Made by a program: the position numbers and the translations under genes
From: Escherichia coli
GTDB lineage: Bacteria; Pseudomonadota; Gammaproteobacteria; Enterobacterales; Enterobacteriaceae
Reading direction: 5' to 3' (one strand)
Length of the DNA stretch: 64,000 bases
Assembly: GCF_044324875.1 (NCBI RefSeq)
Contig: NZ_CP172185.1
The notes under the pieces: generated by a model
The model's input: the letters and a program-made list of their open reading frames with translations, nothing else
Database searches by the model: none
Told to the model about the DNA's origin: nothing
Shown here: piece after piece, positions 16,903-60,168 of the stretch
Layout: each line of letters opens with the position of its first letter
How positions within the stretch are numbered: position 1 is the stretch's first letter

Positions 16903-17781
16903 ATGTTCACGGGAAGTATTGTCGCGATTGTTACTCCGATGGATGAAAAAGGTAATGTCTGTCGGGCTAGCTTGAAAAAACTGATTGATTATCATGTCGC
17001 CAGCGGTACTTCGGCGATCGTTTCTGTTGGCACCACTGGCGAGTCCGCTACCTTAAATCATGACGAACATGCTGATGTGGTGATGATGACGCTGGAGCTG
17101 GCTGACGGGCGCATTCCGGTGATTGCCGGGACCGGCGCTAACGCTACTGCGGAAGCCATTAGCCTGACGCAGCGCTTCAATGACAGTGGTATCGTCGGCT
17201 GCCTGACGGTAACCCCTTACTACAATCGTCCGTCGCAAGAAGGTTTGTATCAGCATTTCAAAGCCATCGCTGAGCATACTGACCTGCCGCAAATTCTGTA
17301 TAATGTGCCGTCCCGTACTGGCTGCGATCTGCTCCCGGAAACGGTGGGCCGTCTGGCGAAAGTAAAAAATATTATCGGAATCAAAGAGGCAACAGGGAAC
17401 TTAACGCGTGTAAACCAGATCAAAGAGCTGGTTTCAGATGATTTTGTTCTGCTGAGCGGCGATGATGCGAGCGCGCTGGACTTCATGCAATTAGGCGGTC
17501 ATGGGGTTATTTCCGTTACGGCTAACGTCGCAGCGCGTGATATGGCCCAGATGTGCAAACTGGCAGCAGAAGGGCATTTTGCCGAGGCACGCGTTATTAA
17601 TCAGCGTCTGATGCCATTACACAACAAACTATTTGTCGAACCCAATCCAATCCCGGTGAAATGGGCATGTAAGGAACTGGGTCTTGTGGCGACCGATACG
17701 CTGCGCCTGCCAATGACACCTATCACCGACAGTGGTCGTGAGACGGTCAGAGCGGCGCTTAAGCATGCCGGTTTGCTGTAA
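16903..17781 (+). CDS. dapA: 4-hydroxy-tetrahydrodipicolinate synthase (dihydrodipicolinate synthase)
   Basis: 292 aa from ATG 16903 ([17 protein letters not shown]...); GTTGES motif; matches DapA. Confidence 0.96.
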
Positions 17782-57462: not shown

Positions 57463-57675
57463 ACGGCCTGAGTTGTAATAATAAAGTTCCAGATGTTATA
57501 TCGTATCGCGTAATCCGTTACGACCGTTTGCTGTTGAGAATTGTTTTACTTTTCATTTCAATAGTTGACAACTCCCCATTATGCCACTTTTTCAACCGAT
57601 TTTCGTCAGATATTGGCTAATTCGACCGTTCACGCCATAATCAGCCTTTTAACCCGCAAAAAGGTAACGAATACC

Positions 57676-58101: not shown

Positions 58102-58537
58102 GTTTCATCCTGTCCATTATGATGCACACGGTCGCCTGCGTTTACCCTTGCTCTTCTGGCTTGTGCTATTGCTTCAGGCGCGAACCTGGGTGCTGTTTGT
58201 CATTGCCGGTGCGTCGCGCGAGCAGGGTACTGCGCTGCTAAATCTGTTTTATCCCGATCACGATAATTTCTGGCTGGGGTTGATTCTCGGCATTCCGGCG
58301 GTGCTGGCGTTTTTGCTGAGTGGTCGGCGGGCTTCATTTCCCCGTATCTGGCATGTGCTCTATTTTCTGTTGCTGTTGGCGCAGGTGGTTTTACTTTGCT
58401 GGCAACCGTGGCTGTGGCTGAACGGTGAATCCGTTAGCGGTATCGGGCTGGCGCTGGTAGTGGCGGATATTGTGGCGTTAATCTGGCTGCTGACCAATCG
58501 ACGTTTACGCGCTTGTTTTAATGAAGAAAAAGAATAA
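58088..58537 (+). CDS. yfeZ: Inner membrane protein YfeZ
   Basis: 149 aa hydrophobic ORF; start overlaps ypeA 3' end by 14 nt. Confidence 0.85.
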
Positions 58538-58538
58538 C

Positions 58539-58566
58539 GGCACTTTTTGGTGAATTTGCACTCCAA
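58539..58566 (+). promoter_or_regulatory. Candidate sigma-E promoter for yfeY
   Basis: GGCACTT-N16-TCCAA against sigma-E consensus GGAACTT-N16-TCNAA; about 32 nt upstream of yfeY ATG. Confidence 0.45.
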
Positions 58567-58597
58567 GCAACGTTATTGAATAACCAAAGGAAGTGAC

Positions 58598-59173
58598 ATG
58601 AAATCGCTGCGTTTAATGTTATGCGCTATGCCGTTGATGCTGACCGGCTGTTCCACGATGTCGTCAGTTAACTGGTCTGCCGCTAACCCGTGGAACTGGT
58701 TTGGGTCGTCCACCAAAGTGAGCGAGCAGGGCGTTGGTGAATTAACGGCGTCCACACCACTGCAAGAACAAGCCATTGCTGATGCGCTTGATGGCGATTA
58801 TCGCCTGCGCAGCGGAATGAAAACCGCGAACGGCAACGTGGTGCGCTTTTTTGAAGTGATGAAAGGCGACAACGTGGCGATGGTGATTAACGGTGATCAA
58901 GGCACGATCAGCCGCATTGATGTGCTGGATAGCGATATTCCTGCTGACACCGGTGTTAAAATCGGTACACCGTTTAGCGACCTTTACAGCAAAGCATTTG
59001 GCAATTGCCAAAAAGCTGATGGTGATGATAATCGTGCCGTCGAATGTAAAGCCGAAGGCAGTCAACATATTAGCTACCAGTTCAGCGGGGAATGGAGTGG
59101 TCCTGAAGGGTTAATGCCTTCGGACGATACCCTGAAAAACTGGAAAGTCAGTAAAATTATCTGGCGGCGTTAA
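58598..59173 (+). CDS. yfeY: Lipoprotein YfeY (sigma-E regulon member)
   Basis: 191 aa; signal peptide with lipobox LTGCS. Confidence 0.9.
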   Translation: MKSLRLMLCAMPLMLTGCSTMSSVNWSAANPWNWFGSSTKVSEQGVGELTASTPLQEQAIADALDGDYRLRSGMKTANGNVVRFFEVMKGDNVAMVINGDQGTISRIDVLDSDIPADTGVKIGTPFSDLYSKAFGNCQKADGDDNRAVECKAEGSQHISYQFSGEWSGPEGLMPSDDTLKNWKVSKIIWRR

Positions 59174-59184
59174 TTTGCGTCTGA

Positions 59185-60168
<984 letters not shown>

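Follow-up and report, generated by a model that had tools for sequence, protein, structure and literature searches.

Results and Discussion

The 60-bp gap between yfeZ and yfeY of Escherichia coli contains the sequence GGCACTT-N16-TCCAA, which is very probably the sigma-E (RpoE, sigma-24) dependent promoter of yfeY. Control of this gene by sigma-E is already known, having been published years ago and being present in the name of its product, so that the value of the result as a discovery is low: a known promoter has been read correctly from sequence alone. What is added here is the footprint of the promoter across genera, in which the blocks are invariant, the spacer keeps its length of 16 nt while its sequence is free, and the non-consensus bases are conserved.

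A sigma-E-type motif in the yfeZ-yfeY gap

The window, that is, the whole stretch of 64,000 nucleotides that was analyzed, belongs to the E. coli chromosome, and the 2 kb around the yfeY promoter are matched in 5,425 of 5,426 complete E. coli genomes. According to the annotation, the genes are arranged in the order hemF, amiA (- strand), ypeA, yfeZ, yfeY, yfeX (+ strand) and yfeW (- strand). The stop codon of yfeZ ends at 58537 and the ATG of yfeY is at 58598, which delimits the gap to positions 58538-58597. The yfeY coding sequence (58598-59173, + strand) specifies a lipoprotein of 191 aa, with the lipobox LTGC at residues 15-18, as read from the translation. The protein matches the NCBIfam equivalog NF007990, 'RpoE-regulated lipoprotein', with 337.6 bits (cutoff 207), as well as Pfam DUF1131, and 'RpoE-regulated lipoprotein' is also the RefSeq/PGAP product name in the genome records listed.

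Within the gap, on the + strand, the sigma-E-type -35 element GGCACTT (58539-58545) is followed by a T-tract (58546-58548, the two together covering 58539-58548). The 16-nt spacer extends from 58546 to 58561, its variable part (58549-58559) being free in sequence, and the sigma-E-type -10 element TCCAA (58562-58566) is preceded by a conserved AC (ACTCCAA, 58560-58566). Sigma-E promoters are characterized by GGAACTTTT at -35 and (T/C)GGTCAAAA at -10, separated by 15-19 nt with a strong preference for 16, and by a discriminator of 5 or 6 nt leading to a start that is usually a purine (Rhodius 2006, PMC1312014). With respect to this motif, the yfeY -35 element (GGCACTTTT) has 8 of 9 bases in common, the single mismatch lying inside the GAAC core, while 4 of the 5 bases of TCAAA are found in TCCAA and the spacer has exactly the preferred length. 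The departures from consensus are a C where the GAAC core has its first A (58541) and a C at the third position of the -10 element (58564), both of which suggest that the strength of the promoter is below that of the consensus. A T-tract after the -35 element has been described for one class of sigma-E promoters (Rhodius 2012), and the conserved T-tract of yfeY agrees with that description. The first-pass annotation of this DNA had pointed to this same motif, with a correctly spaced sigma-E pattern directly upstream of a lipoprotein gene, and its reading holds on each of these points.

Other kinds of signal were looked for in the same region. A promoter scan gave no sigma-70-like TTGACA-N16-18-TATAAT hexamers between 58538 and 58597, and a terminator scan gave no terminator-like site in the 60 bp; folding of the corresponding RNA was no better than that of shuffled sequences (z = 0.17), and Rfam returned no match for the gap.

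Evidence for sigma-E control of yfeY

Envelope-stress control of yfeY had been suggested in the first-pass annotation, which proposed to follow the response of the gene to rpoE overexpression and took a lack of induction as the outcome that would speak against it. That response was already in the literature and is positive, since expression of yfeY increases 3.3-fold when rpoE is overexpressed (Bury-Mone 2009, PMC2731931, Table 2). In the same table yfeY is marked as sigma-E-regulated in three earlier studies, which are cited here as listed there (Rezuchova 2003; Kabir 2005; Rhodius 2006). In addition, yfeY rises together with rpoE and rseABC during autotransporter secretion stress (PMC6850105).

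The site described here is presumably identical, base for base, to the published yfeY promoter, a correspondence that relies on position and motif, given that no other conserved motif of the sigma-E type lies upstream of yfeY. Its sequence gave no match in a full-text literature search, nor in the supplement of the ECF mix-and-match paper, and yfeY is absent from the Salmonella sigma-E ChIP-seq paper.

Predicted transcription start and proposed mechanism

Spacing rules place the predicted start of the yfeY transcript at G 58572 (58572-58573, + strand), which corresponds to position 2551242 of K-12 (NC_000913.3), minus strand. This G is kept in 65 of the 75 distinct sequences compared below, a purine candidate being available at the sixth or seventh base after TCCAA. 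In the proposed mechanism, RNA polymerase carrying sigma-E would contact GGCACTT with region 4 of the sigma factor and TCCAA with region 2, the preferred 16-nt spacer lying between them, and transcription would begin around 6 nt downstream of the -10 element, at the predicted G 58572. The product would be a yfeY mRNA with a short leader of approximately 26 nt. The Shine-Dalgarno sequence AAGGAAG (58587-58593, + strand) is located in this predicted 26-nt leader, its G at 58590 being invariant and AAGGA conserved across genera. Envelope stress, by freeing sigma-E from RseA, would thus lead to more of the outer-membrane lipoprotein YfeY.

The starts mapped in unstressed cells in M9 glucose do not include one at 58572 (Kim 2012, PMC3415461, Table S1). 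This says little about the predicted start, because rpoE, bamD and bamE are also missing from that list and bepA is represented by a distal start only. The sole start reported near yfeY is supported by 7 reads and lies at 58368 (+ strand), inside yfeZ and 230 nt upstream; it was assigned to yfeY in that work (Kim 2012, PMC3415461).

Conservation across Enterobacterales

A scan with the YfeY protein, in which one genome per species was used, yielded 79 loci from around 25 genera of Enterobacterales, including Escherichia, Citrobacter, Salmonella, Klebsiella, Raoultella, Enterobacter, Kosakonia, Pluralibacter, Buttiauxella, Yokenella, Trabulsiella, Pantoea, Chimaeribacter and Winslowiella, among others. 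The pattern NNNACTT-N16-TCNAN was found upstream of yfeY in 77 of them, and in all 77 the spacer was exactly 16 nt long. Sequences from 25 genera were then aligned with MAFFT, anchored by their position before the ATG only, so that no bias towards the motif was introduced. The invariant intergenic columns were ACTTTT (58542-58547), the bases A, C, T, C and A at 58560-58563 and 58565, and a single G of the Shine-Dalgarno sequence (58590). In a per-base analysis of the 75 distinct sequences, the two blocks reached a mean information of 1.8-1.9 bits and the spacer and flanks 0.5-0.7 bits, a contrast that is partly due to construction, since these sequences were anchored on the motif. The less strictly kept bases were also largely maintained: C 58541 in 63 of the 75 sequences, C 58564 in 71 and A 58566 in 72. 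Even within E. coli, the spacer of one locus (L002) differs from that of the window at 4 of 16 positions while both blocks are intact. A fixed distance, a free spacer and short invariant blocks are what would be expected of a two-block promoter; a coding region, an RNA structure or a single-site element would look otherwise.

The two loci in which the pattern was not found are L065, where the assembly has a gap, and L007 (Citrobacter amalonaticus S646), where the intergenic region has been swapped for unrelated sequence. In the latter, around 200 nt containing a strong hairpin (1295-1500 of the locus) occupy the yfeZ-yfeY gap and the sigma-E motif is absent, so that the promoter has been lost or replaced naturally in this locus; L019 and L021, which also come from C. 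amalonaticus, retain it.

Chance matches and alternative readings of the motif

How often such a motif would appear by chance was evaluated in two ways. When the whole window was searched for GGAACTT-N16-TCAAA with at most two mismatches, 7 matches were obtained against 4.7 expected. A rough weight matrix, which is our own reconstruction and not a published one, was built with the sites upstream of 10 other genes of the K-12 sigma-E regulon (rpoE, rpoH, degP, fkpA, bamD, bamE, yfeK, yhjJ, eptB and ygiM), leaving out yfeY and bepA. With this matrix the yfeY site had the top score of the window on both strands, 15.1-15.6 bits, which is within the range of established sigma-E sites (z = +0.27 with respect to the leave-one-out scores of the training set, mean 14.0, sd 3.9). 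Two matches of at least 15 bits were observed, compared with 0.44 expected per simulated window, both strands included, and both are directly upstream of genes reported to be induced by sigma-E (yfeY and bepA). Shuffled windows reached a maximum of 16.2 bits, so the yfeY score taken alone is within the reach of chance in a search of 128 kb; for one given stretch of 100 nt upstream of a gene, the probability of containing such a site is about 3e-4. From the number of consensus matches and the 0.44 high-scoring ones expected, the motif match alone is not significant over the whole window; as judged from the compared sequences, the combination of position and invariant blocks across 25 genera is far beyond chance.

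These results bear on two other readings of the site. It could be a chance look-alike, the induction of yfeY by sigma-E being indirect or due to a promoter located elsewhere, inside yfeZ or upstream of ypeA. The excess of consensus matches over expectation is small, shuffled windows attain similar matrix scores, and the weak start mapped inside yfeZ, together with the lack of one at the predicted sigma-E start, would fit such an explanation. However, invariant blocks at a fixed distance of 16 nt, with a free spacer between them, in around 25 genera would not be expected of a chance match, and the sigma-E-like site at 57583, upstream of ypeA, lacks conservation as a motif. The two-plasmid system used by Rezuchova and coworkers in 2003 is said to recover sigma-E-dependent promoter fragments, so that the flag given to yfeY in that study also argues against a look-alike, which we regard as very unlikely. 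The conserved blocks could, on the other hand, serve another purpose, as an RNA element, a terminator of ypeA-yfeZ, the site of a different regulator or a sigma-70 promoter, considering that conservation by itself does not name the factor that reads them. Against this, the scans gave neither a terminator-like nor a sigma-70-like site in the gap, the fold is indistinguishable from that of shuffled sequences and there is no Rfam match, whereas two short invariant blocks at a fixed distance, with free sequence between them, are what characterizes a two-block promoter, and the sequences of the blocks are those of sigma-E promoters. A different purpose for the blocks thus seems highly improbable.

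The probable 3' end of the yfeY transcript

Downstream of yfeY, the terminator scan identified a terminator-like hairpin, AATGCCACG-GATTG-CGTGGCATT followed by a T-run (59227-59258, + strand), with a 9-bp stem containing 5 G-C pairs. Hairpin and T-run are conserved in around 20 genera. It is probably here that most of the yfeY transcripts originated by sigma-E end, and a role of the hairpin as terminator of yfeY would fit with yfeX not being significantly induced by rpoE overexpression (Bury-Mone 2009, PMC2731931). The yfeX gene has its own mapped start at 59224, and a second 5' end is located 10 nt before its ATG (Kim 2012, PMC3415461). The hairpin therefore spans +4 to +26 of the yfeX mRNA and doubles as its 5' end, so it could terminate yfeY transcripts and, in addition, act on yfeX as a 5' stem-loop or attenuator.

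Two further observations concern this region. The yfeY-yfeX gap (59211-59258, + strand) includes a conserved -10-like TAAAAT (GGTAcAATAGC in other genera), and the hairpin abuts the Shine-Dalgarno sequence of yfeX. In another locus (L090, 2000-2458; E. coli HCP5S3_I2), yfeY and yfeX are split by the insertion of an IS200/IS605 transposase gene.

Relation to the upstream genes ypeA and yfeZ

The order ypeA-yfeZ-yfeY is kept in nearly all the loci compared, and ypeA has its own start, mapped at position 57512 of the window with 51 reads (Kim 2012, PMC3415461). In the gap between amiA, which starts divergently, and ypeA (57463-57675) there are several strongly conserved blocks (GTTATATCGTATCG, AATTGTTTTACTTTTCATTTCAATAC, ATTATGCCATTTTTT, ATATTGGCTAA...GCCATAATCA). 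A start at 57512 gives ypeA a 164-nt leader that holds most of them. The conserved sequence TTGGCT-N17-CATAAT (57613-57641) was considered as a ypeA promoter, although the mapped start of this gene is at 57512. A second candidate sigma-E site in this gap, GCCACTT-N16-TCAGA (57583-57610, 11.8 bits), was rejected, as most genera have CCATTTT at that point and the '-10' is variable.

Repetitive extragenic elements of the REP type (BIME) often end or stabilise upstream transcripts. A 146-bp element of this type is inserted between the yfeZ stop codon and the -35 element in two E. coli loci (L091, 139-285; L092, 1358-1504), and similar insertions occur in other species of the genus, E. albertii and E. 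whittamii among them (L003-L005 and L072), L005 having three copies in tandem. The elements are inserted 1-2 nt before GGCACTT and in every case leave everything between promoter and ATG intact, which fits with this stretch being a self-contained promoter unit.

It is plausible that the control of yfeY is independent of ypeA-yfeZ, as had been proposed in the initial reading of the sequence, its degree being deduced from the arrangement of the locus. The ypeA start and the REP-type insertions upstream of the -35 element favour this part of the proposal, and the lack of a terminator in the gap weakens it. The promoter could be real and yfeY still not independent, being transcribed mostly by read-through from ypeA-yfeZ, with sigma-E adding an increment induced by stress. 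A 60-bp gap with no terminator, the conserved gene order and the 51 reads of the ypeA start are consistent with read-through, but insertions of at least 146 bp between the yfeZ stop codon and the -35 element in several lineages are less so. We consider substantial read-through possible, although not probable. It is in any case compatible with GGCACTT-N16-TCCAA being the sigma-E promoter of yfeY, and would affect only the word 'independent'.

Conserved departures from the consensus

The two C residues that depart from the consensus (58541 and 58564) might not be the result of decay and could instead reflect selection for a set, sub-maximal strength, with each block compensating the other. This idea is tentative, and we find it rather doubtful. 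The hint comes from three loci of the C. amalonaticus type, where a consensus GGAACTT is paired with a weakened TCCAG, so that very few independent events are involved. Three other loci have GGCACTT with an improved TCAAA and no visible compensation, and Pantoea has TAAACTT with TCCAA. If the idea were correct, yfeY would illustrate in nature the tuning of strength and the co-evolution of the -35 and -10 elements in an ECF promoter. The yfeY footprint could in addition be useful in teaching, or as a case on which to test the tuning of ECF promoter strength.

Comparison with other sigma-E promoters

The closest counterpart of the site is the published yfeY promoter (Rezuchova 2003, FEMS Microbiol Lett 225:1; Rhodius 2006, PLoS Biol 4:e2), with which it shares gene, organism and regulatory claim, no difference being known. 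Within the window, the second highest matrix score (15.3 bits, as compared with 15.6 for yfeY) corresponds to GGAACGA-N16-TCAAA, from 581 to 554 on the - strand, which acts as an internal positive control. It is probably the known promoter of bepA (yfgC), a gene reported to be induced by sigma-E (Bury-Mone 2009, PMC2731931), whose only mapped start is 107 nt upstream (Kim 2012, PMC3415461). Both sites have the same geometry, with a 16-nt spacer and a -35 element that begins 59 nt upstream of the ATG (position 522 in the case of bepA), while the sequences differ, the elements of yfeY being GGCACTT, with its T-tract, and TCCAA.

The starts mapped by Kim 2012 (PMC3415461) allow the distance to the -10 element to be compared in other genes. 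In degP, GGAACTT-N16-TCTGA is followed by 5 nt and a start at A; in yfeK, GAAACTT-N16-TCAAA by 6 nt and a start at A; and in the dapA-internal start of bamC, GGAACTT-N17-TCAAA by 5 nt and a start at G. The mapped starts of degP, bamC and yfeK thus fall 6 or 7 nt after the -10 pentamer. The last of these motifs is a perfect GGAACTT-N17-TCAAA inside dapA (17396-17424, + strand), around 400 nt upstream of bamC, and is also present in K-12. A start with 24 reads was mapped at 17430, exactly 6 nt past its TCAAA and 368 nt upstream of bamC (Kim 2012, PMC3415461), and a sigma-E-type promoter internal to dapA would explain it.

A GGAACTT-like -35 element, a -10 element of the TC..A type and a 16-nt spacer are common to yfeY and to the promoters of degP, rpoE (P2), rpoH (P3) and yfeK, and the TC..A pattern is found in the degP, rpoE, yfeK and bamE sites (TCTGA, TCTAA, TCAAA, TCAGA). 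What distinguishes yfeY from degP, rpoE P2, rpoH P3 and yfeK is the C in the GAAC core and the C at the third position of the -10 element, both of which are conserved.
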